NCBI GenBank assembly: GCA_026391215.1
Contig: JAPLDX010000106.1
Coordinates: forward strand, 1 to 64,000
Length of the DNA: 64,000 bases
Direction: 5' to 3'
From: Bacteroidia bacterium
Lineage (GTDB): Bacteria; Bacteroidota; Bacteroidia; Bacteroidales; VadinHA17
Positions within the stretch are counted from its first letter, which is position 1, and each line of letters begins with the position of its first letter. The notes beneath the pieces are model-generated. The model did not search any database. It was not told the origin of the DNA and was given only the letters and a program-made list of their open reading frames with translations. A program made the translations under genes and the position numbers. Positions 697-26,589 of the stretch are shown here, piece after piece.

Positions 697-808
697 AGAT
701 GGCAGGTTTTTAAATTGTACTGCCATAAATTTAAAACAATTTAATTGAAATCATTTATAAGAATCTACATGTACTGATTTTACAGCCCGGCCGAAAGAAT
801 CGATTATG

Positions 809-1027: not shown

Positions 1028-2392
1028 ATGAAAAAAATTCTTCTGATAGTTTTAGGTTTAATCGTAATTGGTATAATTGGCTATGTAGTCTTTTATATTA
1101 TAGGTTCCGATCCAGCTGTTTCTAAAAATACAAGTTCCGACTCTGCCTCTTCCAGTGTTCTCCTGGAGCAAAAGGATGAAAGTCAGCAGATAAGTGAATG
1201 GAGGGAAGAGGACAGAACAGGCGTCTCGGCAGAAACAGGATTGCTTAAAGTATGGCCCGAATCCGGACCTGAACTTATTTGGTCCAATTCTGAACTGCCT
1301 AAAGCATATTCATCAGTGTCTTTTGGCAATAATTCAATATATACAACAGGATTTGATGGGCAGAACGATGTGCTCGTTGCTCTGGATGCATCAGGAAAAA
1401 TTAAATGGCAAAGACCATACGGACGACCATGGAATCCGTCAAATCCTGAAAGCCGCTGTACTCCTACAGTAGAGGGTAACAGCGTATACGTCTCCAGCGG
1501 ATTTGGTGATATTGCATGTATTAATGGCACTTCAGGTGAAATAATCTGGAGTCTGAAAGCCAGCGAAATATACAAAGGAACTTACGGAGAATGGGGTATT
1601 GCTGAATCGCTAATAATTGACGGTCAAAAACTTTACTTTTCACCCGGAGGACCTGAAACCAATACAATTGCTCTGAATAAATCAACAGGTGAACTGATCT
1701 GGAAATCAGAAAGCCTTGATTCGAAACCGGGATACGTATCTCCAATATTAATTGAGTATTCAGGTAAAAAAATGATAATAAATGTTTCGCTAAAATATAT
1801 TTATGCGGTGGATGCATCTGACGGATCAATCCTTTGGAGAATAAAACACATTGATGCTGTTTCTCATGCCGGATATATTTCCAGCTGGCCTGAACTGGAT
1901 TTTATTAAATGCGTCACTCCGCTTTATCATGAAGGGAAAATATATGTGACAGGCGGATATGATACAGGAGCAGCTCTCCTGAGCCTTTCCGAAGACGGAA
2001 ATAATGTAACAGTTGACTGGTCAGATACTGTTCTCGATGTACATCACGGGGGTGCAGTGCTGGTGAACGGTTACATATATGGTGCAAACTGGTTGAACAA
2101 CGGTGATGGTAACTGGTGCTGCATTGATTGGAATACGGGCAAAACGATGTGGGAAGAACACTGGAAGAACAAGGGATCAATTATCTCGGCAGACGGACTT
2201 CTCTATATTTACGATGAAAGATCCGGATTTGTTGGATTGCTCAGACCGGATCCTGAAAAATTTGATCTGATCAGCAATTTTAAGATAAAAGCTGGGTCTG
2301 GACCATACTGGGCACACCCGGTCATAAAGAACGGTGTTATGTATATCAGGCATGGCGAAGCTCTCATGGCATTCGATATCAAAGAGAAATAA
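1028..2392 (+). CDS. Membrane-anchored PQQ-binding-like (BamB-like) beta-propeller protein
   Basis: N-terminal TM helix (MKKILLIVLGLIVIGIIGYVVFYII), repeated A-L-D/N-x-x-x-G-x-x-x-W blades, C-terminal WAHPVIxNGxxYIR. ATG 1028 preferred over TTG 1019. Confidence 0.8.
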   Translation: MKKILLIVLGLIVIGIIGYVVFYIIGSDPAVSKNTSSDSASSSVLLEQKDESQQISEWREEDRTGVSAETGLLKVWPESGPELIWSNSELPKAYSSVSFGNNSIYTTGFDGQNDVLVALDASGKIKWQRPYGRPWNPSNPESRCTPTVEGNSVYVSSGFGDIACINGTSGEIIWSLKASEIYKGTYGEWGIAESLIIDGQKLYFSPGGPETNTIALNKSTGELIWKSESLDSKPGYVSPILIEYSGKKMIINVSLKYIYAVDASDGSILWRIKHIDAVSHAGYISSWPELDFIKCVTPLYHEGKIYVTGGYDTGAALLSLSEDGNNVTVDWSDTVLDVHHGGAVLVNGYIYGANWLNNGDGNWCCIDWNTGKTMWEEHWKNKGSIISADGLLYIYDERSGFVGLLRPDPEKFDLISNFKIKAGSGPYWAHPVIKNGVMYIRHGEALMAFDIKEK

Positions 2393-2412
2393 TAGTTCAT
2401 AATAATATTAAG

Positions 2413-3879
2413 GTGTCTCAGGGAAGAATAAAAAATATCATTATCGGAATTTCCGTTTTGCTTTTTGCAGCTGTTCTTTCATGGTGGTTATTCAGTAATC
2501 ACTACCCTGCAGATGTTGTAATGAGGATACCGGGAATGGATAACCGGCCAAAGACAGAGCCAAGACCTGATACAGTCATTATCGGACAGTTCTTCGATAC
2601 CCTTAAACGTTTTGATGAATTTGTTCCGGGCAGCTGGCCAAGATTCAGAGGAGAATATTTTGACAACAAGAACCGTGATAAAACTCCTCTTGCCGAATCG
2701 TGGGATTCAGCCGGACCACCTGTAGTCTGGAAAGTGACTCTTGGAGAAGGTTATGCCGGACCTGCGGTTCATAATGGAAGAGTTTATATTTTAGATTATT
2801 ATGAAAGAAGAAAAGCAGATATGCTCAGGTGTTTTTCGCTGAAATCTGGTATTGAGCTTTGGAGACGCTGGTATTATGTTGATCTTAAACGGAATCACGG
2901 CTATTCCCGTACTATACCTGCCGTAACTGATAAATACCTGGTATCCATTGGTCCACGGTCGCATGTAATGTGTCTTGACCCGATAACAGGTGATCTGAAA
3001 TGGACTCTCGATATGGAGAAAGAATTCGGGATACCTGGCAATGCTAAAGGGAAAATAACACCGGATTTCTATACCGGACAATGCCCACTTATAGATAATG
3101 ATGTTGCAGTACTGGCTCCTGGAGGGAAAGCACTTATGATCGGTATTGATTGTGCCACCGGACGAGAATTATGGAGAACTCCCAATCCCGATAGTTTGAG
3201 AATGTCGCACAGTTCAATAATGCCTATGGTCATTTTTGGAAAGAGAATGTATGTCTATAATGCTGTCGGTGGAGTTTGTGGCGTATCGGCCGAAGGTGAT
3301 GACACCGGCAGATTGCTCTGGAAAACGACTGAATGGAATCCTGCAACAACTGCCGCTTCTCCCCTTCTCCTGGATAATAATGAGATAGCTGTTTTTGGAA
3401 GCTACGGCTCAGGCGGCGGCAGGATAAGGATCAACTATGACGGATCAGATTTTTCCGCTTCAGTTATTGAAACACATAAGGCGATGGAAGGAATATCAAG
3501 CGATCAGCAGACTCCGGTTATAACCAGTAATCTTATGTGGTCGGTGATGCCTGAAAACGCAGGAGCTCTCAAGAAGCAACTTGTATGCTATAATATCTCG
3601 GATCTAAGGACAGCGGTATGGACAAGCGGCAAGGAGAACAGGTATGGCCGCGGTCTTGGACCCTACATAATCAGCGGCGATAGAATGTTCCTGCTTGATG
3701 ACGATGCCAACCTGTATGTATTTAAGCTGGGAGCCTCTGGTGCTACGCTGATATCAAAGTACAGCATAATTGATGGCATTGAAGCCTGGGGACCAATGGC
3801 TATTGCAGGAAATTATCTCTTAATGAGAGATGCCAGAAACCTGATTGCATTAAATATCGGTAAAGAAAGTCAGTTATGA
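2413..3879 (+). CDS. Membrane-anchored PQQ-binding-like beta-propeller protein
   Basis: N-terminal TM, WPRFRG motif, GEGYAGPAV, repeated CLDPxTGxLxW blades. Confidence 0.8.
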   Translation: MSQGRIKNIIIGISVLLFAAVLSWWLFSNHYPADVVMRIPGMDNRPKTEPRPDTVIIGQFFDTLKRFDEFVPGSWPRFRGEYFDNKNRDKTPLAESWDSAGPPVVWKVTLGEGYAGPAVHNGRVYILDYYERRKADMLRCFSLKSGIELWRRWYYVDLKRNHGYSRTIPAVTDKYLVSIGPRSHVMCLDPITGDLKWTLDMEKEFGIPGNAKGKITPDFYTGQCPLIDNDVAVLAPGGKALMIGIDCATGRELWRTPNPDSLRMSHSSIMPMVIFGKRMYVYNAVGGVCGVSAEGDDTGRLLWKTTEWNPATTAASPLLLDNNEIAVFGSYGSGGGRIRINYDGSDFSASVIETHKAMEGISSDQQTPVITSNLMWSVMPENAGALKKQLVCYNISDLRTAVWTSGKENRYGRGLGPYIISGDRMFLLDDDANLYVFKLGASGATLISKYSIIDGIEAWGPMAIAGNYLLMRDARNLIALNIGKESQL

Positions 3880-4793
3880 ATAAGAAACTCCTGGCTATAT
3901 TTTCTCTCCTGATCATCCTGTCATTTATCGGGTATATTATATATGACACTGCCAGGCCTGAGAGGGATTCTGAGGATCAGGCTCAGGATTTGAATGAATC
4001 AGTGTCACCTGATCAATGGTTTGTCTCTCGTGAAGCGGCTGCCAATGAAGGACTTCAGTCAGTAACTATTTCCGCTGATGGTGATATATATCTCGGTGGT
4101 GATGCGTTTGTTACCTGCATAAATAAGGAGTTGACTCAAGTATGGAATCTCGGTATGGCAGGAAAAATTAAAGCACTTACAGTAAATAATGATACTGTAT
4201 TTGCGGCATCTGAAGAAATGATTTTTCTTATAAGCTCTGATGGCAAGATGATTGCTGAATGGGGACCTTATGAAGCCAACAGCATTATAACATCGATATC
4301 TGCAAATGACCTTTATGTGGCATTTGCAGATGCAGGAAACAAGAGAGTCTTCATCCTCAGTAAAAATGGTGAAGTTATTTCGATGATAGGTCAGTCTGGC
4401 GAGAAATTCATTATTCCAAGTCCCTATTTTGATGTTTATCTAACAGCTGATAATACGCTGTTTCTGGCAAACACCGGGAATTTCAGAATTGAAAAGTGGA
4501 CAATTGATGGAAGATTCCTGTCATCTTTTGGAGAACCGGGAACTGCTCCTGATGCTTTCTGCGGATGCTGCAATCCTGCCCATTTTACCGTAGTACCACA
4601 AGGATTTGTCACCGCTGAGAAAGGAATAAACAGGATAAAAATATTGGGACCTGAAGGCGGATTCATTGAATATGTTTCATCAGAGAATAAATTCATTGCT
4701 TCAGTTCCTCTGGATGTGGCATCGATTGACGGGGAAACGATCTATGCGGCGAATCCGGATGATTCAAAGTTATATGTATTTATTAGGAAGTGA
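3876..4793 (+). CDS. Membrane-anchored NHL-repeat-like beta-propeller protein with CGCC motif
   Basis: N-terminal TM; ADAGNKRV and ANTGNFRIEKW NHL-like blades; FCGCCNPAH; ATGA overlap with upstream gene. Confidence 0.7.
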   Translation: MNKKLLAIFSLLIILSFIGYIIYDTARPERDSEDQAQDLNESVSPDQWFVSREAAANEGLQSVTISADGDIYLGGDAFVTCINKELTQVWNLGMAGKIKALTVNNDTVFAASEEMIFLISSDGKMIAEWGPYEANSIITSISANDLYVAFADAGNKRVFILSKNGEVISMIGQSGEKFIIPSPYFDVYLTADNTLFLANTGNFRIEKWTIDGRFLSSFGEPGTAPDAFCGCCNPAHFTVVPQGFVTAEKGINRIKILGPEGGFIEYVSSENKFIASVPLDVASIDGETIYAANPDDSKLYVFIRK

Positions 4794-4819
4794 CCCCCCA
4801 ACCCCCCTAAAGGGGGGCT
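4794..4819. repeat. REP-like GC palindrome
   Basis: CCCCCCAA-CCCCCC-TAAA-GGGGGG-CT immediately after the stop codon, with no U-tract. Confidence 0.5.
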
Positions 4820-4850
4820 AAATTGATTTAATTTATAAAATGTTGGTATA

Positions 4851-5051
4851 ATGAATATTACAAGGACCAATTTCCTGCAGAAGCTGATAAGAATTCTGCT
4901 GTTTTCTATCCTGGGCTTGATTGCCCTGGCTCTGGGAAGCCGTGCTGTTTCAGGTAGTAGCTGCAATAAATGTCCGGGAAATGGAATATGTAAAGGAGAA
5001 ACGGATTGCAACAAGTTTTTACCAATCAGAAATGAAAGAAGAAAAGAATAA
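4851..5051 (+). CDS. Small Cys-rich membrane protein
   Basis: Degenerate Tat-like leader TRTNFL, hydrophobic helix, then CxxC-x5-C-x5-C; sits in operon position. Confidence 0.6.
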   Translation: MNITRTNFLQKLIRILLFSILGLIALALGSRAVSGSSCNKCPGNGICKGETDCNKFLPIRNERRKE

Positions 5052-5595
5052 ATATCAGTCGCGAAGGGATTTTGTAAGTAAAGCCGGGAAAATTCTGGTT
5101 GCAGTTCCTGTTATTGCACTTCCTTTTATACTTGGGAAGAAAACATCAGCTTCAGGATATGTCTGGCAGATAGATCCTTTTAAATGCACCACCTGCGGAC
5201 AATGTAAGACAAACTGTGTACTCACTCCTTCTGCATCAAAGTGTGTTCATTCTTTTGTTCTGTGCGGTTATTGTGACCTTTGCGGAGGTTACCTGCGTCA
5301 GGGAGCTAAAACAATCAGCACCGGCGCAGAAAACCAGATGTGTCCTACTGGCGCAATAACCAGAAAATTTGTAGAAGAACCCTATTTTGAATATACGATA
5401 AACGAAGATCTTTGCGATGGTTGTGCAAAATGTGTGAAGGGTTGTGTCGACTTCGGTAACGGTTCATTGCATATGCAGATCAAACAGGATCTTTGCGCTA
5501 ACTGCAATGATTGTTCAATAGCAAGGAACTGTCCATCTCATGCAATCTCAAGAGTACCTGCAGATTATCAATACATACCAAAAGATAGAGTATGA
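5032..5595 (+). CDS. Tat-signal multi-[4Fe-4S] ferredoxin (NapG/MauM-like architecture)
   Basis: From ATG 5032: SRRDFV twin-arginine motif plus hydrophobic helix; CTTCGQCKTNC, CGYCDLC, CDGCAKCVKGC, CANCNDC...CP. Confidence 0.75.
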   Translation: MKEEKNKYQSRRDFVSKAGKILVAVPVIALPFILGKKTSASGYVWQIDPFKCTTCGQCKTNCVLTPSASKCVHSFVLCGYCDLCGGYLRQGAKTISTGAENQMCPTGAITRKFVEEPYFEYTINEDLCDGCAKCVKGCVDFGNGSLHMQIKQDLCANCNDCSIARNCPSHAISRVPADYQYIPKDRV

Positions 5596-5629
5596 ATTCA
5601 AAATTCAAAATTCAAAATTCAAAATGCAA
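5595..5629. repeat. Heptamer tandem repeat (AATTCAA)x4 + AATGCAA
   Basis: Directly visible between the ferredoxin stop and the next gene. Confidence 0.9.
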
Positions 5630-5640
5630 AACTATAATTG

Positions 5641-6921
5641 ATGAATAAACGGTATATACCATACGTCCTTTTATTTATAATGCTATTATGGCATGCTGTT
5701 TTGTTTGCCCAGGACAGGTTTCCTCGTCCCGAATTTGAATCTGGTTATGTTTACCCGGAGCACCAGCAACCTCTGCAGAGATCACAGACATGGGAGTATA
5801 TAGATGTAGCCGTTTTGATTGCCGCACTCTCTGTAACAACCTGGCTTGCACTTAAAAAGCGATCACGGCAGGGATTGATCTGGATGTCAGTTTTCTCTCT
5901 TGCCTATTTCGGATTTTACCGGGAAGGGTGTATTTGTTCTGTAGGATCAATTCAGAATGTCGCTCTTGCACTCTTTAACGATGGATATACAATTCCCCTC
6001 ACCGCACTGCTGTTCTTCCTTATACCTCTGATATTTGCTATTTTCTTCGGAAGGGTCTTTTGTGCCGGAGTCTGCCCGTTTGGAGCCATACAGGAGCTTA
6101 CAGGATTTAAGACCGTGAAATTGCCAAAGACAGTTGAATCAATAATGGCAGCTATTCCATTTCTATACCTTGCATTTTCTGTGCTCTTTGCTGCAATGCA
6201 GAGCGAATTCATAATTTGCAGGTACGATCCTTTTGTCGGAATATTTCGACTGGATGCATCATATACAATGATAGTATTCGGTGTGTTGCTTCTAATTGCA
6301 GGGATCTTCATAAACCGTCCCTATTGCAGATACCTTTGTCCTTATGGTGTTCTCCAGAACCTTTTTTCCAGGTTTTCATGGAAGCATCTGACGATCACTC
6401 CTGCCGAATGCACAAATTGCAGGTTGTGCGAGGAAGAAGCGTGCACTTACAATGCAATTTTGCCATCAAATACAAACCAGGAAATAGAAGATCCTGTAAG
6501 ATCAAGAAGAAGGTTTATTTCATATTTTCTTCTTATACCGGTTTTTGCTATTGCCGGAGGCTTTCTCCTTTATAATATGGCTCCGGGTCTTGCCAAAGTA
6601 CACAGGGATGTCCGCCTTGCGCAGGAAATAAGAATTGAAAAGGAAACGGGGATTGAGGCTGTATCAAAAGCTGCTGTCGCATATAAAGAAGCCGGACAGA
6701 CTGAAGAAGAGCTGTTCGCAAATGAAATGAAGATAATCTCAAGGTTCAGGAAAGCTTCTCCATGGGCAGGTGTTTTCCTTGGATTATCTCTGGGGATCAG
6801 CTTGCTGTCGCTGACAATAAAAAGAACACGAACAGAATATGTACCGCATCGTGGCAAGTGCTACAGTTGCGGAAGATGTTTTAAGTACTGCCCTGTTGAA
6901 GTAAAAAATCAAGTTAAATGA
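5641..6921 (+). CDS. Polytopic membrane 4Fe-4S protein (NapH/NosR/RdxA-like)
   Basis: Multiple TM helices; CAGVCP and CRYLCP (CxxxCP) motifs; ferredoxin motifs CTNCRLC and CYSCGRCFKYCP. Confidence 0.8.
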   Translation: MNKRYIPYVLLFIMLLWHAVLFAQDRFPRPEFESGYVYPEHQQPLQRSQTWEYIDVAVLIAALSVTTWLALKKRSRQGLIWMSVFSLAYFGFYREGCICSVGSIQNVALALFNDGYTIPLTALLFFLIPLIFAIFFGRVFCAGVCPFGAIQELTGFKTVKLPKTVESIMAAIPFLYLAFSVLFAAMQSEFIICRYDPFVGIFRLDASYTMIVFGVLLLIAGIFINRPYCRYLCPYGVLQNLFSRFSWKHLTITPAECTNCRLCEEEACTYNAILPSNTNQEIEDPVRSRRRFISYFLLIPVFAIAGGFLLYNMAPGLAKVHRDVRLAQEIRIEKETGIEAVSKAAVAYKEAGQTEEELFANEMKIISRFRKASPWAGVFLGLSLGISLLSLTIKRTRTEYVPHRGKCYSCGRCFKYCPVEVKNQVK

Positions 6922-8660
6922 TAAAGCTGACAGACAAAGAAACAGAAATTCTGAAGGGCATCAGCCAGGTGGCAGGAGTCTTTGCCATAATAGTGGCTCT
7001 GACAATGATATTCAGCCTGGTGCAGCTAAAGACTATCAATCCTCTCGATAATCCAGCGCTTGTCACTATTAAGGATCAGTATGATAAAGATCCGGAGAAT
7101 GCCAATAAGGCCGAACAGGTTCGGGCAATGGATCTCATGGCGAGGAAGGCATATTTTGCTTCAAGACGCCAGGTGGAAACAGGATCGTACCTTCTTATTG
7201 CCGGCGCGATTGTCTTTATACTCTGCCAGCGGCTAATAGCAGGAAATGAAAAGGTTATCCCTGCTGTTCCAGGAACGAAACCGGACCAGACAGCCAGTAA
7301 GAACAGGCGCAGGAAGTACCTGCTGATAACAGCATCAATAATAACAATTAGTGCAATAATCTCCTCCTTTATTCTCAGAAGCAACCTTCCTGACCTAATG
7401 GCAGACAGGCAGGTTGGAAGTAAAGAGAAAATAAAGACAGATGAAAGCAAGAAAGCCAGATCCTCAGATAGTAAGAGTGAGAGCATTATTCTGATGAATG
7501 AATTTAAGCCAGATTCCGTTAATTATCCTTTCTTCAGAGGTCAGGATAGCAGAGCCATAGCAGGAGGTTCAGGTTATCCCACTAAGTGGAATGGAGAAGC
7601 AGGAATAAATATTAAATGGAAAGTTCAGGTACCAAAGTATGGTAAAAGCTCACCTGTGATATGGGGCGATAAGCTGTTCGTTACAGGAGCAGAAGGTGCA
7701 CAGGGTGATGTGTATTGTTATGACAAGAATACCGGGAATCTTCTTTGGACAGCTTCTGCTTCTGGCATCCCCGGAGAACCCTCTGTCGTGCCTGAAATGG
7801 ATGCAGAAGCAGGACTATCAGTATCATCTGCTGCTGTCAACGGCAATGCTGTCTGTGCAATATTTGCCAATGGCAACCTTATCTGTCTCGATCATGACGG
7901 AAACAAAAAGTGGGTTCTGAATGTAGGTTCACTGAATAACGTGTACGGATATTCCTGTTCACTTATTATTTATGAGAACACTCTCATAGTTCAGCATGAT
8001 TCCGATCAGAGGCTCTCAATGATGGGCTTTGACATAAGCACAGGGAAAATGATATGGGAGACTCCACGAAGAGGACGTCCTGTATGGTCATCTCCTATTA
8101 TTGGCACATTTGGCGGGAAGCCGCAGGTAGTGATAAACGGAAATCCTGCTGTTACTGCTTTTGATCCTGTCGACGGAAAAGAACTATGGTCAGTTGACTG
8201 CCTGACCGGAGATGTTGCTCCGTCTCTTGCTGCAAACGGATCTATGGTCTTTGCAGTGACGGATTATCAAAAGCTGGCTGCAATAAAACCCGGAAACGGC
8301 GCCTCTATAGTGTGGGAGGACAATACATACACTTCCGATGTATCGAGCCCTGTGGCCAATAATGAGATACTTATCATTGCCACTGGCTATGGTGATGTTG
8401 CATGCTATAATTCACAAAAGGGAGATACACTCTGGACACACTATTTCATGGAGCAGTTTTATGCCTCCCCGGTGATAGCGGACGAAAAGATATATCTTCT
8501 TGACCGTGCCGGAACAATGCATATAGTGAAAGCAGGCAGAACATTTGAACTGCTGGCTGTTTCGCCACTTGGAGAGCCTGCCGATTGTACTCCGGCATTC
8601 TCGGATAAGAGCATTTATATAAGAGGAAAGAATAATCTTTATTGCATTTCACAGAATTGA
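6918..8660 (+). CDS. PQQ-binding-like beta-propeller protein with three N-terminal TM helices
   Basis: Three hydrophobic segments, then YPFFRG, GKSSPVIWGDKLF and repeated propeller blades. Confidence 0.8.
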   Translation: MIKLTDKETEILKGISQVAGVFAIIVALTMIFSLVQLKTINPLDNPALVTIKDQYDKDPENANKAEQVRAMDLMARKAYFASRRQVETGSYLLIAGAIVFILCQRLIAGNEKVIPAVPGTKPDQTASKNRRRKYLLITASIITISAIISSFILRSNLPDLMADRQVGSKEKIKTDESKKARSSDSKSESIILMNEFKPDSVNYPFFRGQDSRAIAGGSGYPTKWNGEAGINIKWKVQVPKYGKSSPVIWGDKLFVTGAEGAQGDVYCYDKNTGNLLWTASASGIPGEPSVVPEMDAEAGLSVSSAAVNGNAVCAIFANGNLICLDHDGNKKWVLNVGSLNNVYGYSCSLIIYENTLIVQHDSDQRLSMMGFDISTGKMIWETPRRGRPVWSSPIIGTFGGKPQVVINGNPAVTAFDPVDGKELWSVDCLTGDVAPSLAANGSMVFAVTDYQKLAAIKPGNGASIVWEDNTYTSDVSSPVANNEILIIATGYGDVACYNSQKGDTLWTHYFMEQFYASPVIADEKIYLLDRAGTMHIVKAGRTFELLAVSPLGEPADCTPAFSDKSIYIRGKNNLYCISQN

Positions 8661-11077: not shown

Positions 11078-12149
11078 TAATATTGACCTGGATGCTGATG
11101 AAGGTCAGACAATCCTGAATGTGGCTTTAAAGGCAGGTATACATATTCCTACACTTTGCCATAAGGTTGGAGTAGAACATTATTCATCATGCATGGTTTG
11201 CCTTGTAAAAAACTTAAAGGCAAACAGCTTTATACCATCATGTTCCGCACTGGTTCAGGACGGGATGGAAATTGATGCATCTGGAGACGAGGTTAAGACA
11301 ATAAGGAAGAAAGCTATCGAACTGCTTTTGTCAGAACACAGGGCAGAATGTGAAGCTCCCTGCAGGATAGTCTGCCCTGCCGGATACAATATCCCGTTGA
11401 TGAACAGACTGCTGATGTCCGGAGACTATGAAAAAGCTCTTGAGTTGTCAGCATCTGAAGTAACAACTCCGGAAATTATGTGTACAGATTGCAAGGGTTT
11501 TTGTGAGAACACTTGCAGGAGAAAAAAGGTTGATCAGCCAATATCAATCCGGAACATACAATTGTTTGTTTCACAAAGTATTAATAAATATGAACAGCCT
11601 GAATCAGTTAAAGATCAAAGCATTAATGGATCCGTGGAACAGAAGGGAATAAAAATTTCTAATCCATTGAGGAAGAGGTTCTCTTCGAAGATCGGCAAGC
11701 TTGAAACTGAAGAATTTAAGGAATGGTTAAAAGAATGTACAGAAACCGGAGAACGTTTCAGGGATATCACAGATATCAATGCTGCCGGGCATGAAGCAGA
11801 AAATTGCATGCATTGTGATTGCCGTGCTTCAGGTAGTTGCCTTCTTAGAAAAACCGCTGAAGAGTTTTCAGTTAAAGATCCTGCAGGTAAGATTATAAAT
11901 GCACCGATAGCAAAAAAGATAAATCATAAAACCGGCCTGATTTTTGAGAATGCAAAGTGTATTAAATGTGGTCTCTGTGTAAGGGTTTGTGAAGACACCA
12001 GGGATGAACCTGCACTCTGCTTTTTAAACAGGGGATTTATTTCCATAATCTCGGAACCTTTAACAGAGGAGTTTGTTAATATTCTAAGAACCAAAACCGA
12101 TATTTGTGTTGACATATGTCCGACAGGCGCTCTGGGAAAGATAAAATAA
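11058..12149 (+). CDS. NuoG/HydA-N-terminus-like FeS subunit (2Fe-2S + 4Fe-4S) without a catalytic domain
   Basis: IPTLC...CMVC...SC 2Fe-2S; CEAPCRIVCP and CENTCRR; CMHCDC; CIKCGLCVRVC; CPTGAL; only 363 aa. Confidence 0.8.
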   Translation: MIRIKIDNIDLDADEGQTILNVALKAGIHIPTLCHKVGVEHYSSCMVCLVKNLKANSFIPSCSALVQDGMEIDASGDEVKTIRKKAIELLLSEHRAECEAPCRIVCPAGYNIPLMNRLLMSGDYEKALELSASEVTTPEIMCTDCKGFCENTCRRKKVDQPISIRNIQLFVSQSINKYEQPESVKDQSINGSVEQKGIKISNPLRKRFSSKIGKLETEEFKEWLKECTETGERFRDITDINAAGHEAENCMHCDCRASGSCLLRKTAEEFSVKDPAGKIINAPIAKKINHKTGLIFENAKCIKCGLCVRVCEDTRDEPALCFLNRGFISIISEPLTEEFVNILRTKTDICVDICPTGALGKIK

Positions 12150-12150
12150 G

Positions 12151-13275
12151 ATGCAGTTAAGGAGATACATATATATAATCATGGTCGTTCTGTTGAGCAC
12201 GCGGCTATCTGATGCCCAGGTCACAGATAATAACTGGTCTGTATTCCGAGGGAAAAGCGATCTTTCAGGAAGCACCCGTTACGAATTAGTGGATAAACCC
12301 GTACTATTATGGAGCGTTCCTACAGGAGGAAGAACCAAATCATCACCTGTGCTTAGTGACGGAACTATCTACTTTGGAAATGATAAAGGAACTCTTTATG
12401 CAATAAGCTATGATGGGAGGATCAAATGGAGTTTTGAAACAGGGAGCCCTGTAGAAGCTCCTCCCCTTGTCTTCGGTGATAAGGTATATGCTGGTTCATC
12501 TGACGGGGTATTCCGTGCTGTTAATAAATTAACAGGAAAGCTGGTATGGTCATATTCTACCGAAAACCAGATAGTAGGTTCAGGAAACATATGGATATCA
12601 GGCAAGCAGGCGGGAATTATCTTCGGGAGTTATGACTATTATGTGCATTGTGTTGATCCTGCATCAGGCAAGCTGCTATGGAAGCTTGAAACATTAAATT
12701 ATGTAAATGGCACTCCTGCAGTCTCTAATAATAAAATAATCTTTGGCGGATGTGACGGAATAATCAGGGTTGCAGATCCAAGGACCGGAGCAGAAAGGGA
12801 TACGTTTGATATCGGCGTCTATATTGCCGCCTCTCCTGCCGTGGTTAACGAAAAAGCATATTTCGGAGATTATGACGGGACTTTTTACTGTCTTGATATG
12901 GCTGAACGGAAAATTGCCTGGTATATAGAACCTGGTGAAACATCAGGAACAATACTTGGGATACCTGCAGTCACAGGTAATTCCGTGGTTATAGGGAATG
13001 AGGACAAGTACGTGTATTGTTATAATGCAACAGATGGCAGGTTGGTCTGGAAATACAGAACAAACGGCAGTATAACGGGTTCAGCCGTTGTTTCGACGAC
13101 TAAGGTTCTGTTTGGAAGCACGGACGGATATGTATATATAGTTGGAATAGCAAACGGTAAGAAGATATGGAGCTTCAATGCAGGAGCCCCGGTAAGCAGC
13201 TCTCCTGCCGTTACGCAGGACAGGTTCTATTTCCTTACAGAGGACGGAAGATTGCTGGCATTCGGTAATAAATAA
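12151..13275 (+). CDS. Secreted PQQ-binding-like (BamB-like) beta-propeller protein
   Basis: Signal peptide, WSVFRG, regular SSP-V...YxGxxDGxxYA...GxxxW blades. Confidence 0.85.
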   Translation: MQLRRYIYIIMVVLLSTRLSDAQVTDNNWSVFRGKSDLSGSTRYELVDKPVLLWSVPTGGRTKSSPVLSDGTIYFGNDKGTLYAISYDGRIKWSFETGSPVEAPPLVFGDKVYAGSSDGVFRAVNKLTGKLVWSYSTENQIVGSGNIWISGKQAGIIFGSYDYYVHCVDPASGKLLWKLETLNYVNGTPAVSNNKIIFGGCDGIIRVADPRTGAERDTFDIGVYIAASPAVVNEKAYFGDYDGTFYCLDMAERKIAWYIEPGETSGTILGIPAVTGNSVVIGNEDKYVYCYNATDGRLVWKYRTNGSITGSAVVSTTKVLFGSTDGYVYIVGIANGKKIWSFNAGAPVSSSPAVTQDRFYFLTEDGRLLAFGNK

Positions 13276-13282
13276 ACTATAT

Positions 13283-14587
13283 ATGAAGATCGTATATCTC
13301 ATAACCGGATCCGGAGGATCATTTTATTGTGCCAACTGTTACCGCGATATGCTCTACTTCAGAGCTATACGGAAAGTGCCAGGCACGACCGTTCAGGCTG
13401 TTCCTTTATATCTGCCGCCTGACAGGGAAATATCCGATGAAAACGAATTTGATAAGGAAGTTTTTTTTGGAGCAATCTCATTATACCTGAGGGAAAAAGT
13501 GAAAATATTCAGGAACATGCCTGCTTTTCTTGAGAAATTCTTTGACTCCAGACCATTCTTAAAACTGGCATCTGGCATGGCAGGGACCACAAGAACGGAA
13601 GGACTTGAGGACCTGACACTTAATATGATTGAAGGCGACAATGCATTCCGTAAGAATGAAATGGACAGGCTTGTCAGCTACCTGATCAAAGATGGGAAAC
13701 CTGATGTGATACACCTTTCAAATGCCCTGATACTGGGATTGGCACGGCAACTGAAAAAGAGGATGGATGTAAAAATCGTTTGCTCACTGCTGAATGAAGA
13801 TGACTGGATTGATGATATGACTGAACCTTACCGAAGCAAAGCCTGGAGCATGATCGCTGCTGAATCGATTTATGTTGACAGTTTTGTCACTCCAAGCAGA
13901 TACTTCAAAGAAATTGTCATTAAGAAGACTGGATTGATGGGTAACAATATCCATATAGTTCCGCTGGGTTTTGATCCTCCTCCGTCTCATGAGAAATTAA
14001 AGGACCAGTCAAAACCGCCGGCACTAGGGTATTTCTGCAGGGTCAGCCAGCATAACGGATTTGACAAGCTTGTTGATGCGTTCATTGAACTGAAGACAAA
14101 GAACCTTCAACCTGGCCTTACGCTGAATGTATGCGGAGGCTATACAGGTGACGATAAACCTTTTATTTCCACCCAGATAAAGAAAATAAGAGAACATGGA
14201 TACCAGAAAAGTATCAGGATCTACCCTGAATTCAGCGGAGACAAGAAAACCGAATTCTTTAATAATGTGGATGTCATCAGTGTACCAGTCCGTAAATATG
14301 ACGGATATGGTCTGTATATTCTTGAAGCTAACAGCGCGGGCATTCCGGTCGTACAGCCTGCAACGGGTGCGTTTCCGGAAATATTGGAAATGACAGGTGG
14401 AGGGATAACTTATTCACCGGATACTGTTGAAGAACTTGTTGCGGCCCTGCTCAGGATGTTCACAGATAATGATCTGCGTAATAAGCTGGGAAATACCGGA
14501 AGCACAAAGGTAAGGTCCATGCTTTCGCTTAATAAAATGTCTGCAGGTTTGTCTGTGGTTTATAATGAGTTGTTAACCCTGAAATAA
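13283..14587 (+). CDS. Glycosyltransferase family 4 (GT-B) protein
   Basis: DGYGLYILEANSAGIPVV...GAFPE GT4 signature; N-terminal YCANC. Confidence 0.85.
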   Translation: MKIVYLITGSGGSFYCANCYRDMLYFRAIRKVPGTTVQAVPLYLPPDREISDENEFDKEVFFGAISLYLREKVKIFRNMPAFLEKFFDSRPFLKLASGMAGTTRTEGLEDLTLNMIEGDNAFRKNEMDRLVSYLIKDGKPDVIHLSNALILGLARQLKKRMDVKIVCSLLNEDDWIDDMTEPYRSKAWSMIAAESIYVDSFVTPSRYFKEIVIKKTGLMGNNIHIVPLGFDPPPSHEKLKDQSKPPALGYFCRVSQHNGFDKLVDAFIELKTKNLQPGLTLNVCGGYTGDDKPFISTQIKKIREHGYQKSIRIYPEFSGDKKTEFFNNVDVISVPVRKYDGYGLYILEANSAGIPVVQPATGAFPEILEMTGGGITYSPDTVEELVAALLRMFTDNDLRNKLGNTGSTKVRSMLSLNKMSAGLSVVYNELLTLK

Positions 14588-14593
14588 AATAAT

Positions 14594-15259
14594 ATGTTAG
14601 TAATTGAGGGTATCACCAAATCATTCATTCAGAGAGGCATTGTCCTTGATAAGCTGGAGCTTTCTGTAAAAGAAGGCGATTCGATAGCAGTGACCGGATC
14701 TTCAGGATCAGGCAAAACAACCCTGATGAATATTATAGGTCTGCTTGACAAGCCAGATTCAGGTGACCTGTTTTTCAGGGGAAAGTCAATACTTACCTTT
14801 ACTCCCGATGAGTCAGCTTTGTACAGGAACAGGAATATAGGTTTTATTTTTCAGGATAATCTGCTCCTTCCCCATCTTACAGTTGAGGAAAATATTATGC
14901 TGCCACTGTTTGCAGCAAGGATTTCTGAAGACGAATATAAAGAGAAAAGAAAATATGCGGATCTTCTGATGGAAAAAACCGGCATTAAAGGATTATACGG
15001 AAAATATCCATTCCAGATTTCCGGTGGTGAAGCCCAGCGTGTTACACTGGTGAGAGCTCTGATCAATAAGCCTTCCCTCCTGCTCGCTGATGAGCCTACA
15101 GGATCGCTTGATGCAAAAAATGCTATGCTCCTTGGTGAACTCCTTACCAGTTTGAATAATGAAACAGGTACTGCGATGATAGTCGCGACGCATTCCTCTG
15201 ACCTGGCTGCAAAAATGAAAGTGCATCTGCGGCTGGAAAATGGCAGGCTTATTCCATAA
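14594..15259 (+). CDS. ABC transporter ATP-binding protein (LolD/MacB type)
   Basis: GSSGSGKT, ISGGEAQRV, LLADEPTGSLD, ATH. Confidence 0.92.
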   Translation: MLVIEGITKSFIQRGIVLDKLELSVKEGDSIAVTGSSGSGKTTLMNIIGLLDKPDSGDLFFRGKSILTFTPDESALYRNRNIGFIFQDNLLLPHLTVEENIMLPLFAARISEDEYKEKRKYADLLMEKTGIKGLYGKYPFQISGGEAQRVTLVRALINKPSLLLADEPTGSLDAKNAMLLGELLTSLNNETGTAMIVATHSSDLAAKMKVHLRLENGRLIP

Positions 15260-15278
15260 GTATATAATCATTATTTTA

Positions 15279-18200
15279 ATGAGGTCCCTGGGAGAAACAA
15301 TTAGACGTTCCATCCTGTTCTACAGAAAGGATGCTTTAAACCAGGTCATAATTGTGACCTTGTTATCAGCAATAATAACAGGTTCGCTGTTGACAGGACA
15401 TTCTGTAAGGTCCAGCCTGCTGAAGAATGCTTCTGAAAGACTTGGTAATACTGCGATTGTCATCAGCTCAGGACTTCGCTACTTTGATGCCTCATTATCT
15501 GACAGAATTACGAAACAAACCAGGGAAATAACTACCTCTTTTCTTGAGACAGACGGATATTGCCAGAATTTCTCAACAGGAGCAACAGTTTTAAACACAA
15601 AAATATACGCAATCACCGAAAATTTCTGGTTATTCCATAGACTTGACACCATCAAAATTGTTCCTGGAACAGTAGCGATAAACTCCGTCCTGGCAGATCG
15701 TCTTGGAGTTAGTACAGGAGATGAGCTGATTATAAAATTACAGGATATCGATCCCATTCCTTCAAATGCCCCATTCTCTATGTCCCGCGGAAATGATGTT
15801 TCAAAAGTTGTAAGAGTCGGAATGGTGCTCAATCCTGATCAAATGGGAAATTTTTCTCTTGGAATAAGCCAGCTAGCTCCGCTAAATGTATTTATAAGCC
15901 TGTCAGATATTGAAGAAAGCCAGCGGACTCATTCAAGAGTTAACAGAATGCTTTTTCAGAATAGCAGAAATCTTCCCGTTTCTTTCTACCGTGAAGCTTT
16001 ATCAAAACTTCTTATGCCTTCCGATATAGGACTGACAATCAGGAGATCTCAGAAAACAGGTGAAACGGAGCTTATCTCTGACAGGATTTTTATTGACAGC
16101 GCAATTGTTTCAGATATCATGGCCGGAATACCTTCAGCCTCACCTGTAATAACATACCTGGGAAACAATATACGGGTAGGTAGCAGGTCTACACCTTATT
16201 CATTTATAACTTCATCCTCCTATAATGCTATTGGAGAAAACGAAATTGTTATAAGCAGGTGGCTTGCTGATGATCTTGATGCAAAAACGGGAGACACACT
16301 TATACTAACCTGGTATGATCCGGGTTACAGAAACAAGCTTGAAGAAAAAAACAGGAGCTTCATAATAAGTAATGTACTGGCAAATGATCATCCTTATTCT
16401 GATCCCTCGCTGATGCCTGATTTTCAGGGCATATCAGGCAGTACTACCTGTTCGTCATGGGATGCCGGTGTTCCGATACTTATGGATAAGATAAGGTTGA
16501 AGGATGAAGAATACTGGAATAAATATAAGGGAACACCCAAGGCATTCATAAGCTACAGGACAGGTATGAAGCTATGGGGAAACAATTTCGGTCCTGCTAC
16601 TGCGGTAAGATTCCCTGGTACATCAGAACCAGAAGAAATAACTGCCGGTATTACGAAATTACTTGATCCTCTGAAAGCCGGATTCACAATAACTGATATC
16701 AGGGGAAAAAGCGGCAATGCTGCCACCAGTGGGGTTGATTTCAGCACCCTTTTTCTTGGTCTGGCATTTTTTATTATTGTTTCATGCCTGATCCTGTTAT
16801 CACTGGCAGTCTCAATGTTCTTTGATTCCAGAAAAGGCCAGATAAGAACTTATTTTGCTCTTGGATTCAAGAATAAGCAGATACGGAACCTTCTCCTTTC
16901 GGAGACGATGACAATTTCTGCAGCCGGTGCAATTACTGGAGTTTTCCTTGGATACTTTATTAATATTATAATCATTAAAGCGCTGAATTCAGTCTGGATT
17001 GGAGCAGTACAGACAAATACCCTCTCGCCTGATTTCGATTTCATATCGCTCCTCACCGGCTTCCTTGCGACAATGATCATAGCCTACATCATGCTTCTTG
17101 TTAAATCAGGGAAATTTCTGAAAAGTCTATCTGAAAAGGAAACAGGTGAGCTGAAAGATCAGTCTCAGAGGCTGAACCTTTTATTTTTTATATTGAGCTT
17201 ATTCAGCTGGATAATTTTGTTTATTCTCTCATTAGTGATTGATGCCTTTTCCACTGCACTTTCCTTTACAGCCGGAGCACTTGCTTTCTGTACTTTAGTT
17301 TTTGCACTAAGGCAGTATTATATCAGAAACGTACCAGATAGGAACAATATAAAATCCCTGCGACGCAATCTTGAGAAGCAGTATTTTCATTTCCAACCTT
17401 CACATGCTATCACTCCGGTCATCTTCATCGCAGCAGGTATATTTGCAGTTATAATCACAGGCGCCAACCGGCAGACAATAAATAAAGAAATGCTATTACC
17501 TTCAGGAGGAACCGGAGGCTATTTATTATGGGCGGAATCAGCTGTCCCGGTCAGAGAAAACCTGAATAGCATTGAAGGCAGAAAAGATTTCGGACTTGAT
17601 GAGACAGAACTGAAAGATCTTATTTTTGTTCAGGCAAAGAAATTGTTTGGAGATGATGCAAGTTGCCTGAATTTAAACCATGTAACCGCTCCGTCAGTTC
17701 TTGGAATTGACCCTGAGGAATTTATTGCCAAAGGATCATTTTCCTTTGCATCCCGGATAAAAGGTTTAGAGAATAAAAATCCCTGGGATCTTCTGAATGA
17801 AACACCGGACGACAATACTATTTATGGTATAGCGGATCAGACAGTTCTTGAGTGGGGGCTTAAGATAAAGGTTGGTGATACTCTGGTTTATAGAGCGGAG
17901 AATGGCCAGATTCTTAATATAGTGATTGGTGCAGGCCTTAAATCTTCTGTGTTCCAGGGATATCTTTTGGTTGGTTCTGAGAATTTTTCAGAATATTTCC
18001 CTTCAGTATCAGGGAATTCAATATTTCTTGCAGATGGGGACCCGGGATTATCAGACTATTATGCGGGGATATTAAGCGAGAGATTATCAGGATACGGAAT
18101 ATCAGCAGAACCTGCTTCCCGTAAGCTTGCATCATTTTTTGTTGTAGTCAATACATACCTCAGTGTATTTATGGTTCTTGGAATCCTGGGTATGGTGCTT

Positions 18201-18530
18201 GGAGTTGCCGGGCTGGGATTCATTCTCATCCGGAATTTCAATCAGAGAAAAAAGGAATTTGCACTTATGATGGCAACAGGTTATACAACAAAGCAGATCA
18301 GAAAACTTTTACTGAAGGATCAGAGTCTGATCCTTTTCCTGGGAGTATTTACAGGAACGGTTTCCGGACTTATAGCTACGCTTCCATCTTTGAACAGCGG
18401 ATCAGAGATGCCCTGGAAAATAATAACAGCAATGATCCTGATGATCATTGCTGTAGGATTAAGTACTATTTTATTATCAATCAGAACCGTACGAAGTTCT
18501 TCATTAATCATTCAGCTCAGGAGGGAATAA
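15279..18530 (+). CDS. Large duplicated FtsX/MacB-type ABC permease
   Basis: Two repeats of TM + large extracytoplasmic domain + TM bundle (RKGQIRTYFALGF; RKKEFALMMATGY). ATG 15279 preferred (ORF track 15240). Confidence 0.85.
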   Translation: MRSLGETIRRSILFYRKDALNQVIIVTLLSAIITGSLLTGHSVRSSLLKNASERLGNTAIVISSGLRYFDASLSDRITKQTREITTSFLETDGYCQNFSTGATVLNTKIYAITENFWLFHRLDTIKIVPGTVAINSVLADRLGVSTGDELIIKLQDIDPIPSNAPFSMSRGNDVSKVVRVGMVLNPDQMGNFSLGISQLAPLNVFISLSDIEESQRTHSRVNRMLFQNSRNLPVSFYREALSKLLMPSDIGLTIRRSQKTGETELISDRIFIDSAIVSDIMAGIPSASPVITYLGNNIRVGSRSTPYSFITSSSYNAIGENEIVISRWLADDLDAKTGDTLILTWYDPGYRNKLEEKNRSFIISNVLANDHPYSDPSLMPDFQGISGSTTCSSWDAGVPILMDKIRLKDEEYWNKYKGTPKAFISYRTGMKLWGNNFGPATAVRFPGTSEPEEITAGITKLLDPLKAGFTITDIRGKSGNAATSGVDFSTLFLGLAFFIIVSCLILLSLAVSMFFDSRKGQIRTYFALGFKNKQIRNLLLSETMTISAAGAITGVFLGYFINIIIIKALNSVWIGAVQTNTLSPDFDFISLLTGFLATMIIAYIMLLVKSGKFLKSLSEKETGELKDQSQRLNLLFFILSLFSWIILFILSLVIDAFSTALSFTAGALAFCTLVFALRQYYIRNVPDRNNIKSLRRNLEKQYFHFQPSHAITPVIFIAAGIFAVIITGANRQTINKEMLLPSGGTGGYLLWAESAVPVRENLNSIEGRKDFGLDETELKDLIFVQAKKLFGDDASCLNLNHVTAPSVLGIDPEEFIAKGSFSFASRIKGLENKNPWDLLNETPDDNTIYGIADQTVLEWGLKIKVGDTLVYRAENGQILNIVIGAGLKSSVFQGYLLVGSENFSEYFPSVSGNSIFLADGDPGLSDYYAGILSERLSGYGISAEPASRKLASFFVVVNTYLSVFMVLGILGMVLGVAGLGFILIRNFNQRKKEFALMMATGYTTKQIRKLLLKDQSLILFLGVFTGTVSGLIATLPSLNSGSEMPWKIITAMILMIIAVGLSTILLSIRTVRSSSLIIQLRRE

Positions 18531-19888: not shown

Positions 19889-19923
19889 GGCAAAAAGTTT
19901 AACTGTCAAAAATAGTATATTGT

Positions 19924-25178: not shown

Positions 25179-25200
25179 TTCAATATTTATTTTCAATTAA

Positions 25201-25527
25201 TTATTCCAAGTAAAATACTTGTTCCAGCGGAATGGAAATAGGTGAATTATCTGGATTGGTCTCCATTATATCAGCCATATACTTCCACCATTTCTTCACT
25301 ATTTCTGTTGATCCAAGATCCTGTGAGGAGCTTTCTCCTGTTTGTTCCTGGTAAGCAAAGAGTGTATTTGTCTCTTCATCAAGAAAGATGGAATAATTGC
25401 CAATGCCTTCATTCTTTAACAGTTTGACCAGTTCAGGCCAGATCTCGCTATGCCTTTTCCGGTATTCTTCCTTAAATCCCGGATACATTTTCATTTTAAA
25501 ACCAAATCTCTTTACCTTACTTTCCAT
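25201..25527 (-). CDS. rhaM: L-rhamnose mutarotase
   Basis: EYRKRHSEIWPE, NYSIFLD, WWKYMADIMETNPDNSP. Confidence 0.95.
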   Translation of the reverse strand: MESKVKRFGFKMKMYPGFKEEYRKRHSEIWPELVKLLKNEGIGNYSIFLDEETNTLFAYQEQTGESSSQDLGSTEIVKKWWKYMADIMETNPDNSPISIPLEQVFYLE

Positions 25528-25528
25528 T

Positions 25529-26557: not shown

Positions 26558-26566
26558 ATAATTTTA

Positions 26567-26589
26567 TTTAAATTGAATCGCAATTTAAA
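26567..26589. promoter_or_regulatory. Perfect 9-5-9 inverted repeat in the rhaT / rhamnosidase divergent region
   Basis: TTTAAATTG-AATCG-CAATTTAAA, 10 bp upstream of rhaT. Confidence 0.4.

Follow-up and report, generated by a model that had tools for sequence, protein, structure and literature searches.

NapGH-like modules link the menaquinol pool to periplasmic terminal reductases, as set out in the part of PMC4585668 available to us. Here we analysed a window, that is the whole stretch of 64,000 nucleotides at positions 1 to 64,000 of contig JAPLDX010000106.1 (forward strand; GenBank assembly GCA_026391215.1), from a Bacteroidia bacterium of the Bacteroidales lineage VadinHA17, which holds a cluster of 13 genes (g01 to g13). 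As in the NapGH, NosGH and PceA-linked NapGH-like modules, a polyferredoxin with a twin-arginine translocation (Tat) signal (g05) stands together with a polytopic Fer4_5 protein carrying CxxxCP and ferredoxin-type motifs (g06). Unlike them, the cluster encodes no terminal enzyme of the NapA, NosZ or PceA type, and compared with NapGH and NosGH it contains an insert with two extra hydrophobic segments in g06, a mini-subunit with four Cys (g04) and an adjoining cytoplasmic Bfu module (g08-g09). The same gene content occurs in permuted order in a second phylum, which constitutes the strongest argument for one functional unit, and we consider it probable that the 13 genes form one modular inner-membrane redox machine.

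The cytoplasmic part resembles the NfnABC/Stn enzymes of the Bfu family (9n5u, 9bov, 8oh5): g08 aligns with NfnB over residues 199-805 and has a HydC/NuoE-like N-terminal part, and g09 corresponds to the N-terminal and middle iron-sulfur (FeS) regions of NfnA. In contrast with NfnABC/Stn, BfuC and BfuB are fused, the genes lie inside a membrane/periplasm cluster, and the NfnA-like subunit lacks the flavin/NADPH domain; other families keep one Rossmann-type domain, and the C-terminal molybdopterin-like domain is always missing. A BfuBC core amid membrane-subunit genes is also found in the predicted membrane-bound complexes Nuo-Bfu and Mbh-Bfu (Schut et al. 2022, PMC9304861, in the part of the paper available), where the membrane partner is Nuo- or Mbh-like and not NapGH-like as in our cluster; that part of the paper mentions no NapH-type partner.

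The propeller g02 shares the eight-bladed fold of BamB, YxaL, Rv3035 and tetrathionate hydrolase (Z 30-32, root-mean-square deviation (rmsd) 3.1-3.4 over 320-350 residues). It differs from them in that identity is 12-16%, and in that the cluster propellers are N-terminally anchored to the inner membrane and encoded with FeS proteins. To our knowledge, none of these four proteins has a cofactor. The pair g12-g13 combines a LolD-like ATPase with FtsX-type permease domains as in the type VII ATP-binding cassette (ABC) systems (MacB, LolCDE, FtsEX, YbbAP), while g13 is duplicated (1096 aa) and has no MacB_PCD match in Pfam, and there is no adaptor or TolC gene. Methylamine dehydrogenase (mau) clusters also bring together a propeller subunit, a small Cys-rich exported subunit and a NapG/NapH-like pair (MauM/MauN), and the model TIGR02163, which g06 matches below its cut-off, is named NapH/MauN. 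We rejected this analogy: g04 has no Trp for tryptophan tryptophylquinone, there are no mauE/D/G-type genes and the carriers are anaerobes. The initial annotation of the stretch, made from the sequence alone, knew of no characterised complex with this composition, and in agreement we found no published description of the cluster in the full-text literature, a search of article texts and not of supplements; those of the Bfu family paper may list the clade. What sets the cluster apart from its closest kinds is the lack of a known terminal enzyme, the NapH-type partner, the mini-subunit with a multi-propeller set, and the link to a family 4 glycosyltransferase (GT4) and a duplicated FtsX.

The 13 co-oriented genes extend from 1019/1028 to 18530 on the plus strand in the open reading frame (ORF) listing of the window. 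Neighbours are spaced by -20 to +57 bp, as the initial annotation had it (overlaps or short gaps throughout), and Pfam and NCBIfam domains agree with its list of parts, including four PQQ_2-type propellers (g01, g02, g07, g10). The genes are:

1028..2392 (start 1019/1028), plus strand: g01 (PQQa), N-terminal membrane anchor and PQQ_2-type propeller (PQQ_2 7.4e-26)
2413..3879, plus strand: g02 (PQQb), anchored eight-bladed propeller (PQQ_2 2.6e-21)
3876..4793, plus strand: g03, anchored six-bladed NHL propeller with vicinal Cys231-Cys232-x-Pro234 (PDB NHL 4.7e-15)
4851..5051, plus strand: g04, 66-aa mini-protein with Tat-like signal/anchor and four conserved Cys (homologous ORFs)
5032..5595, plus strand: g05, Tat-signal polyferredoxin, NapG-like by architecture (SRRDFV and Fer4 families)
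5638..6921, plus strand: g06, NapH/NosR-like polytopic FeS membrane protein (Fer4_5 twice, 7.1e-16, plus Fer4)
6918..8660, plus strand: g07 (PQQc), three transmembrane helices and PQQ_2 propeller (Pfam, hydrophobic segments)
8642..11077, plus strand: g08, HydC/NuoE-like part fused to HydB/NuoF-like part, BfuC-BfuB core (2Fe-2S_thioredx, Complex1_51K, NADH_4Fe-4S, Fer4)
11058..12149, plus strand: g09, truncated NfnA/BfuA-like FeS protein (Fer2_4, Fer4_20, Fer4_Nqo3)
12151..13275, plus strand: g10 (PQQd), propeller (Beta-prop_ACSF4 1e-61, PQQ_2 1.2e-40)
13283..14587, plus strand: g11, GT4 glycosyltransferase with N-terminal CxxC (Glycos_transf_1 1.9e-19)
14594..15259, plus strand: g12, ABC ATPase of LolD/MacB/FtsE type (ABC_tran 1.6e-30)
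15240..18530, plus strand: g13, duplicated FtsX-type permease, 1096 aa (FtsX twice, 1.4e-22)

Conservation of the gene set in Bacteroidales and Planctomycetota

Relatives of g06 that are near full-length and 61-75% identical were present in 24/24 sampled genomes of the genus, and at 46-48% identity in two of the 16 genomes sampled from other families. Gene order was identical in the 10 loci fetched around g06. A scan with g07, with one genome per species, gave 436 relatives, the best 80 of which all belong to uncultured Bacteroidales/Bacteroidota metagenome-assembled genomes (MAGs), nearly all with the same gene order; at least three loci of this best-80 set are probably identical records to the 10 g06 loci, so that the two sets overlap. 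In a sample spread evenly over the phylum no g07 match at E<=1e-30 was found in 400 other genomes, only seven of which came from the same order. Within the order, full-length g07 occurs in 70/401 genomes and in 51/236 genera, and a g02 profile at E<=1e-80 likewise matches 70 of these 401 genomes. Both genes were detected in 67 genomes, only g07 in 3, only g02 in 3 and neither in 328; these counts are descriptive and carry no test statistic, as the genomes are related and some are drafts.

In 12 loci from other families the order g01-g02-g03-(g04)-g05-g06-g07-g08-g09-g10-g11-g12-g13 is found again, a few of them being partial or split. In one genome (G486) g01-g03 lie about 75 kb away from the remaining genes, and in two others (G617, G726) g01-g06 and g07 onward are on different contigs; the members of the set thus co-occur even when they are split into two operons. 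The most conserved propeller of the set is g02, with 41-48% identity to its homologs from other families. Since the same set recurs in hundreds of loci, the arrangement is not due to chance.

When g07 was searched against 1.84 billion representatives, 1334 proteins matched at E<=1e-30, and the source of one full-length relative labels it as a protein of a Verrucomicrobiota MAG. In P0215 and P0238 a full-length g06 (43% and 38% identity) is naturally fused with a g07 that is also full-length, so that g06 and g07 can be one polypeptide and are physically tied. With these two fusions as queries, a metagenome scan recovered 514 relatives on contigs with G+C between 0.39 and 0.66. Contigs with G+C of at least 0.44 show the order g10-g11-g12-g13-g02-g03-g05-g06-g07-g08-g09-g01(-g01). 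We counted 33 such Planctomycetota-type loci of at least 15 kb, many cut by contig ends, in which g05, g06 and g07 are present in 33/33 by construction. Among them g03 is found in 32, g02 in 30, g08 in 27, g12 in 26, g09 in 24, g01 in 23, g11 in 22, g13 in 21 and g10 in 20. The phylum was assigned from the g02 homologs of two of these contigs, whose organism-named relatives are Phycisphaerae, Sedimentisphaerales, Phycisphaerales or Planctomycetota MAG proteins in 7/7 and 6/6 cases. The initial annotation had proposed to look for conserved co-occurrence across phyla, and held that homologs scattered over other genomes would speak against the cluster; the set is conserved in Bacteroidales and in Planctomycetota (Phycisphaerae) contigs, and its genes are clustered in both groups.

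Several variations accompany these loci. The copy number of g01 ranges from 1 to 3, with fused copies in some Planctomycetota-type loci, and relatives of g07 also occur as tandem double or triple propellers (P0122, P0123, P0124, P0127, P0150, P0222, P0168), one of them with HEAT repeats between the propellers. At L148:19853-22178 and L175:17817-20296 (also in L161 and L189) PQQa genes are followed by a 4Fe-4S dicluster protein of 270-300 aa and a radical S-adenosylmethionine (SAM) enzyme of 506-523 aa, of the B12-binding/MiaB-like type. Radical SAM peptide or cofactor maturation was rejected as a core part, since this query gave no homolog in the genome of the window. Some Planctomycetota-type loci have an additional, shorter NapH-like gene of 383 aa (Fer4_5 twice and a Fer4 dicluster; L155:9-1160, also in L153 and L168) upstream of the GT4 gene, in the position that g10 takes in others.

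Cytoplasmic module, iron-sulfur wire and propellers

In the cytoplasmic module, g08 has its closest solved relative in NfnB (9n5u_B, 2e-212, query 199-805); 8oh5_B and 9bov_B come next, ahead of HydB subunits. Its domains are PF01257 (33-175), a 2Fe-2S ferredoxin-like domain (206-284), PF01512, PF10589 and Fer4 (749-801), which correspond respectively to two 2Fe-2S sites, the FMN/NADH site, an N3-type 4Fe-4S site and a C-terminal 2x[4Fe-4S] site; the start codon is uncertain (TTG at 8642 or a few codons later). Against 9bov_A, 8oh5_C and NfnA (9n5u_A), g09 matches only in its residues 1-172 and 229-359, equivalent to 3-174 and 539-671 of a 1178-residue chain. It has an N-terminal 2Fe-2S domain, a Fer4_20 region, an extra Cys/His motif and a C-terminal ferredoxin-like domain, and in the PDB alignment it lacks both the flavin/NADPH domain and the C-terminal domain. 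Homologs in other families and in Planctomycetota-type loci are longer (498-588 aa) and keep a partial Pyr_redox_2/NAD_binding_8 region, while those of two loci, L108 and L112, have 323-327 aa like the g09 of the window. Judged by these alignments, g08-g09 is a cut-down member of the Bfu family of NfnABC/Stn type (compare PMC11829005 and PMC12018979). The bifurcating-type NAD(H) module proposed in the initial annotation is therefore supported by the NfnB match as far as the Bfu type goes. Its label of g09 as a HydA/NuoG-like subunit fits as regards an FeS subunit without catalytic part, and its identity is corrected to a truncated NfnA/Stn-type protein. In the available parts of PMC9304861, BfuB associated with Nfn is noted in Bacteroidetes, and membrane-bound Bfu enzymes with quinone as a third substrate are predicted.

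The module is not constant. In three of the 10 loci around g06, g07 abuts g10 and g08-g09 are missing; the pair is absent in 11 of the 77 informative loci (66 have g08, and 3 that end at g07 were excluded), and five metagenome loci of the low-G+C type lack it as well. In three genomes without g08-g09 no g08 ortholog was found elsewhere, the best match (41-48% identical) being a paralog. The NADH module is thus an optional feeder that is missing from a subclade, and the link to NAD(H) and ferredoxin claimed by the initial annotation holds in that a Bfu module is present, and not in that it would be a fixed feature. Where the pair occurs, it comes directly after g07 in the gene orders of both phyla. 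Besides this copy, the genome holds three HydB paralogs, each adjoining an [FeFe]-hydrogenase gene; only the copy of the cluster has no catalytic neighbour. HydB-like genes are found on three contigs of this genome (C98, C117 and C65 of G000), the last of which holds three Fe_hyd_lg_C matches. We infer that g06 is the partner through which g09 would reach its third substrate; a predicted complex of g06 and g09, each with its own alignment, reached a median score of 0.25 against a mark of 0.32, which weighs neither for nor against this partnership.

With respect to the membrane and periplasmic FeS proteins, each of 17 Cys in g05 is conserved in 90% or more of 76 sequences, which would suffice for four [4Fe-4S] clusters, and export of g05 is predicted from the twin-arginine motif SRRDFV; TatC is present in the genome. 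The 15 conserved Cys of g06 comprise two CxxxCP motifs, a GCxC, one single Cys and two ferredoxin-type motifs that are split by the insert with the two extra hydrophobic segments (C142/C146, C230/C234, C258-C269 and C408-C418 among them). Its match to TIGR02163 NapH/MauN (4.5e-17) reaches 62.4 bits against a cut-off of 213, and that to NF007013 48.3 against 234; a PDB sequence search gave no match for g06, and no NapG/MauM model is among the NCBIfam matches of g05 at E<=0.01. The small g04 overlaps g05 by 20 bp and is a real ORF, with 69 homologous ORFs in 90 loci (L013-L102) and four Cys conserved in at least 90% of 70 sequences; it has no Pfam family. Twin-arginine motifs (MNRREFI, MERRTFIK, SRRQLM) appear in its homologs from other Bacteroidales families and Planctomycetota-type loci, and a C-terminal pattern C-x5-6-C-x2-C-x6-8-C followed by LP(E/Q)A is shared by other Bacteroidales families and by 6/12 Planctomycetota-type loci, a crude scan having found no g04-like ORF in the other 6/12. 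In the ESM Atlas g02 and g04 matched only unnamed or BamB-named clusters, most commonly from Bacteroidota, with one Acidobacteriota cluster for g02. A menaquinone pool in the host is likely: MqnC scores over its cut-off and the genome encodes cytochrome bd, although the MenA model gave no match.

The initial annotation had found no catalytic subunit of a hydrogenase, formate dehydrogenase, Nap or Nos and no pqq or rnf genes in the window. Our Pfam scan of 58 window ORFs, which outside the cluster covered those of at least 120 aa, likewise detected none of these; RnfD and five Fe_hyd_lg_C matches lie elsewhere in the genome, which is 98.9% complete. No terminal reductase of the NapA, NosZ or PceA type was found among the 58 ORFs or among the labelled genes of related loci, and none of the 13 products contains a CxxCH haem motif.

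In the case of the propellers, the AlphaFold2 (AF2) model of g02 has a predicted local distance difference test (pLDDT) value of 89.0. Its structural Z scores (VIA) are tied between YxaL (32.4), BamB (31.9), tetrathionate hydrolase (31.7) and Rv3035 (30.3), with quinoprotein sorbose dehydrogenase at 27.6; Foldseek places tetrathionate hydrolase at rank 1 (E 1.3e-16). These matches are to generic eight-bladed propellers only, and a PDB sequence search gave none for g02, in which C140 and C224 are invariant in 113/113 homologs. The four PQQ_2 propellers score only 20-63 bits against 480 for TIGR03075. For PF01011 (cut-off 26.7), g01 reaches 26.1 bits, g02 18.5 and g07 22.9, and g10 reaches 33.1 with no single stretch passing. 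No pqqE over cut-off was found in the genome. The initial annotation had the propeller complex carry an unknown cofactor or substrate; because their nearest structures are cofactor-less scaffolds and pqqE is not found over its cut-off, they appear more likely to be scaffolds or substrate binders than quinoproteins. Without a Pfam match, g03 is modelled (pLDDT 89.9) as a six-bladed NHL fold, with a template-modelling (TM) score of 0.71-0.80 and an rmsd of 2.7 to the TRIM2 NHL domain, and its structural matches are eukaryotic NHL domains only. Cys231, Cys232 and Pro234 are invariant in 92/92 homologs from both groups, and His236 is kept in 69/73 Bacteroidales-type and in 9/19 metagenome homologs. 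Outside the FeS proteins, this CC-x-P and the four Cys of g04 would be the only conserved candidate redox sites.

The remaining genes form a block, PQQd-GT4-ABC-FtsX, that moves as one and is absent near the core in five loci (L109, L116, L122, L124, L160). Glycosylation by the GT4 and export by the ABC system, as suggested in the initial annotation, would be putative roles of this block. In g11 the CxxC (C16, C19) is conserved in 95/95 homologs; PF00534 (70.3 bits) and PF13439 (34.5 bits) pass their cut-offs, no equivalog threshold is reached, and among solved structures GT4 enzymes such as MshA and BshA come closest, in the C-terminal half only. Synthesis of a low-molecular-weight thiol was considered and dropped, the match being to a generic C-terminal GT4 half and the set having no deacetylase or ligase gene. 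For g12, PF00005 scores 106.9 bits and TIGR02211 LolD 204 against a cut-off of 308 (1.8e-60). For g13, PF02687 matches two stretches (80.4 bits), the type VII subfamily scores stay under their cut-offs (ADOP 36.9 against 622, YbbP 17.1 against 999), and a PDB sequence search gave no match.

Simple hydropathy and motifs suggest how the products would be placed. One N-terminal hydrophobic segment each is found in g01 (residues 7-25), g02, g03 and g04; g06 has about seven segments, the propeller of g07 stands behind three, and g13 has nine with two large periplasmic loops of about 450 and 235 aa. A short signal-like N-terminus and no hydrophobic segment above the anchor threshold are seen in g10, and g08, g09, g11 and g12 show no credible membrane segment. 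All exported parts would therefore either be attached to the inner membrane or lie free in the periplasm, and the conserved set contains no outer-membrane component; in this sense, the description of the system as trans-envelope in the initial annotation was overstated.

Proposed mechanism and rival explanations

If the 13 genes do form one electron-transfer machine, as we think probable, g08 as a flavoprotein of BfuBC type would exchange electrons with NADH and ferredoxin in the cytoplasm, and g09, an FeS-only remnant of NfnA, would wire it to the cytoplasmic ferredoxin-like clusters of g06. The latter would also communicate with the menaquinone pool, in the fashion of NapH, and in loci without g08-g09, g06 would receive its electrons directly from menaquinol or ferredoxin. 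On the outer face g05, with its four putative clusters, and g04, with its four Cys, would carry electrons to a propeller platform made of g07 tethered to g06, together with g01, g02, g03 and g10, in which the propellers may scaffold or bind a substrate. Our committed guess is that the Cys-Cys pair of g03 would alternate between its disulfide and dithiol forms and would reduce a sulfur or disulfide substrate that is periplasmic or bound to the membrane. The propeller, CxxC GT4 and type VII ABC proteins of g10-g13 would produce or handle a glycosylated component of the membrane on which the platform depends. The full statement, in which the machine links NADH/ferredoxin and/or menaquinone to the periplasmic propellers as the reductive end, we hold at slightly under an even chance. 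A further step, that this is an unrecognised class of complex in which a Bfu core plugged into a NapH-type subunit lets NADH and reduced ferredoxin drive haem-free export of low-potential electrons to a catalytic vicinal-Cys centre, is rather unlikely in our judgement.

Several points weigh against the reading as an electron-transfer machine. Complex formation and electron movement are predicted here from the genes, and which way the electrons run is a guess. No redox cofactor is recognisable in the propellers, the two adjacent Cys of g03 may have a structural role only, and His236 is replaced by Asn in 10/19 metagenome homologs. In architecture g05 and g06 resemble NapG and NapH but they miss the curated family thresholds. 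We know of no membrane-spanning cofactor in NapH-type proteins, and electrons of the cytoplasmic clusters may reach the outside perhaps only via the quinone pool, which would limit the available potential. In addition, a subclade does without g08-g09, which makes the NADH link non-essential for the core, and g10-g13 may be a separate, merely co-occurring function.

An alternative that we regard as unlikely, though to be taken seriously, is a machine for building or maintaining the envelope, in which the BamB-like propellers, a mechanotransducer of type VII ABC kind and the GT4 work at the outer face of the inner membrane to assemble or remodel a glycolipid, lipoprotein or polymer, and the FeS module only senses or gates by redox state or gives occasional reducing equivalents, with no metabolic electron route. 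The nearest structures of g02 are the protein-binding scaffolds BamB, YxaL and Rv3035 (Z 30-32); FtsX-type permeases with LolD-like ATPases do work in the periplasm, as their families are known for; the invariant CxxC of g11 may be a redox switch, and the core persists without the NADH module. However, a polyferredoxin of about four clusters, a mini-subunit, a NapH-like protein with 15 conserved Cys and, in most lineages, a full Bfu flavoprotein would be a heavy investment for a sensor, and the part that is sometimes missing near the core is g10-g13 and not the FeS proteins. We give a clearly smaller chance to g08-g09 being an independent soluble Nfn-like NAD(P)H/ferredoxin enzyme that is merely co-located, the rest being a menaquinol-linked module of NapGH type. 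This would fit the loss of the pair in a subclade where the remaining genes stay, the nucleotide-binding-type domain that g09 keeps in most families, and the listing of Bacteroidetes among carriers of Nfn-associated BfuB (PMC9304861, in part). Yet the pair stays right behind g07 in both phylum-specific orders, and in the window's genus and in L108 and L112 g09 lacks the nucleotide domain and cannot be a stand-alone Nfn.

Slightly less probable still is a periplasmic sulfur or polysulfide reductase, a special case of the electron-transfer machine, that serves as an electron sink of a fermenter, is fed by NADH, ferredoxin and/or menaquinol, and has propellers binding sulfur species as tetrathionate hydrolase does. 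That enzyme ranks with the best structural matches of g02 (first in Foldseek; Z 31.7), conserved Cys sites are found in g03 and g04, the carriers are anaerobic Bacteroidales and Phycisphaerae MAGs, and the three hydrogenase-linked HydB paralogs suggest a fermenter. But tetrathionate hydrolase is tied with BamB and YxaL, so that only the fold is shared, and Pfam and NCBIfam detect no rhodanese, Psr or Sud-type gene in the set. A quinoprotein dehydrogenase whose pyrroloquinoline quinone propellers oxidise periplasmic alcohols or sugars, with the FeS chain leading to menaquinone or to NAD+/ferredoxin, seems very improbable: the weak PF01011 and TIGR03075 matches and the presence of sorbose dehydrogenase in the structural list (Z 27.6) would agree with it, while PF01011 is under its cut-off for g01, g02 and g07 and TIGR03075 far under for all four, the closest structures are cofactor-less, and a genome of 98.9% completeness has no pqqE over cut-off. 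Finally, that unrelated operons lie side by side by chance is hardly credible. The set is indeed built of separable blocks, but presence of g07 and g02 agrees (67 both, 3 and 3 with one, 328 neither), and the recurrence of the same content in permuted order in a second phylum already contradicts it.

Genomic surroundings and significance

On one side of the cluster, a phosphotriesterase-family (PTE) gene (1-726, minus strand) is divergent from g01, an adjacency kept in about 12 loci of the same lineage. On the other, a convergent operon (18533-22046, minus strand) encodes a VTC-domain protein, DUF4956, DUF2490 (outer-membrane beta-barrel type) and a fifth PQQ_2 propeller, g14, which is 28-30% identical to g07 over the matched region (65% of g07, spanning the propeller). 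This operon adjoins the cluster in several loci of the same genus and some metagenome loci (L013, L016, L083, L085, L090, L099, L134), and not in other families. A window scan with the sigma-70 consensus, which we presume to be unsuited to this phylum, gave 61 promoter-like sites where 48 were expected and 23 terminator-like sites where 15 were expected, none of which marks an operon boundary. Further along the window are rhamnose utilisation genes (22555-29407: FGGY kinase, RhaA, RhaT and a GH78 alpha-L-rhamnosidase), and a lysine-2,3-aminomutase-like radical SAM gene followed by two ATP-grasp (D-Ala-D-Ala ligase-like) genes and a GNAT acetyltransferase (32621-36303, plus strand), which may constitute a beta-amino-acid or peptide pathway. 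There is also a Bat (aerotolerance)-type operon (39490-47688, minus strand) with a MoxR AAA ATPase, DUF58, an unassigned ORF, two BatA/VWA proteins, a TPR protein, BatD and a TPR/SH3 protein, and tandem aconitase-family genes of 591 and 604 aa (52412-56034, minus strand) beside an AraC-type regulator.

The carriers of the cluster are widespread and mostly uncultured anaerobic heterotrophs, with records from sediments, peat and fen, permafrost, sludge and digesters, and the set is present in about one in six sampled genomes of the order, plus Phycisphaerae. A conserved redox system of 12-13 genes with no known terminal enzyme means that part of the energy or envelope metabolism of these organisms is unaccounted for. 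It would be the first Bfu-type NADH/ferredoxin module genetically wired to a NapGH-type module, and it bears on the old question of the role of the cytoplasmic FeS clusters in NapH/NosR-type proteins. The cluster also offers a testable route for haem-free electron export. Complete one-contig carrier genomes, such as G672, G694 and G783, could make it experimentally tractable if any comes from a cultured strain. If the reading as a new class were true, it would reveal a hidden periplasmic reductive metabolism or electron sink in the abundant sediment and digester fermenters of the Bacteroidales and Phycisphaerae, and would give a defined job to the cytoplasmic clusters of NapH/NosR-type proteins.

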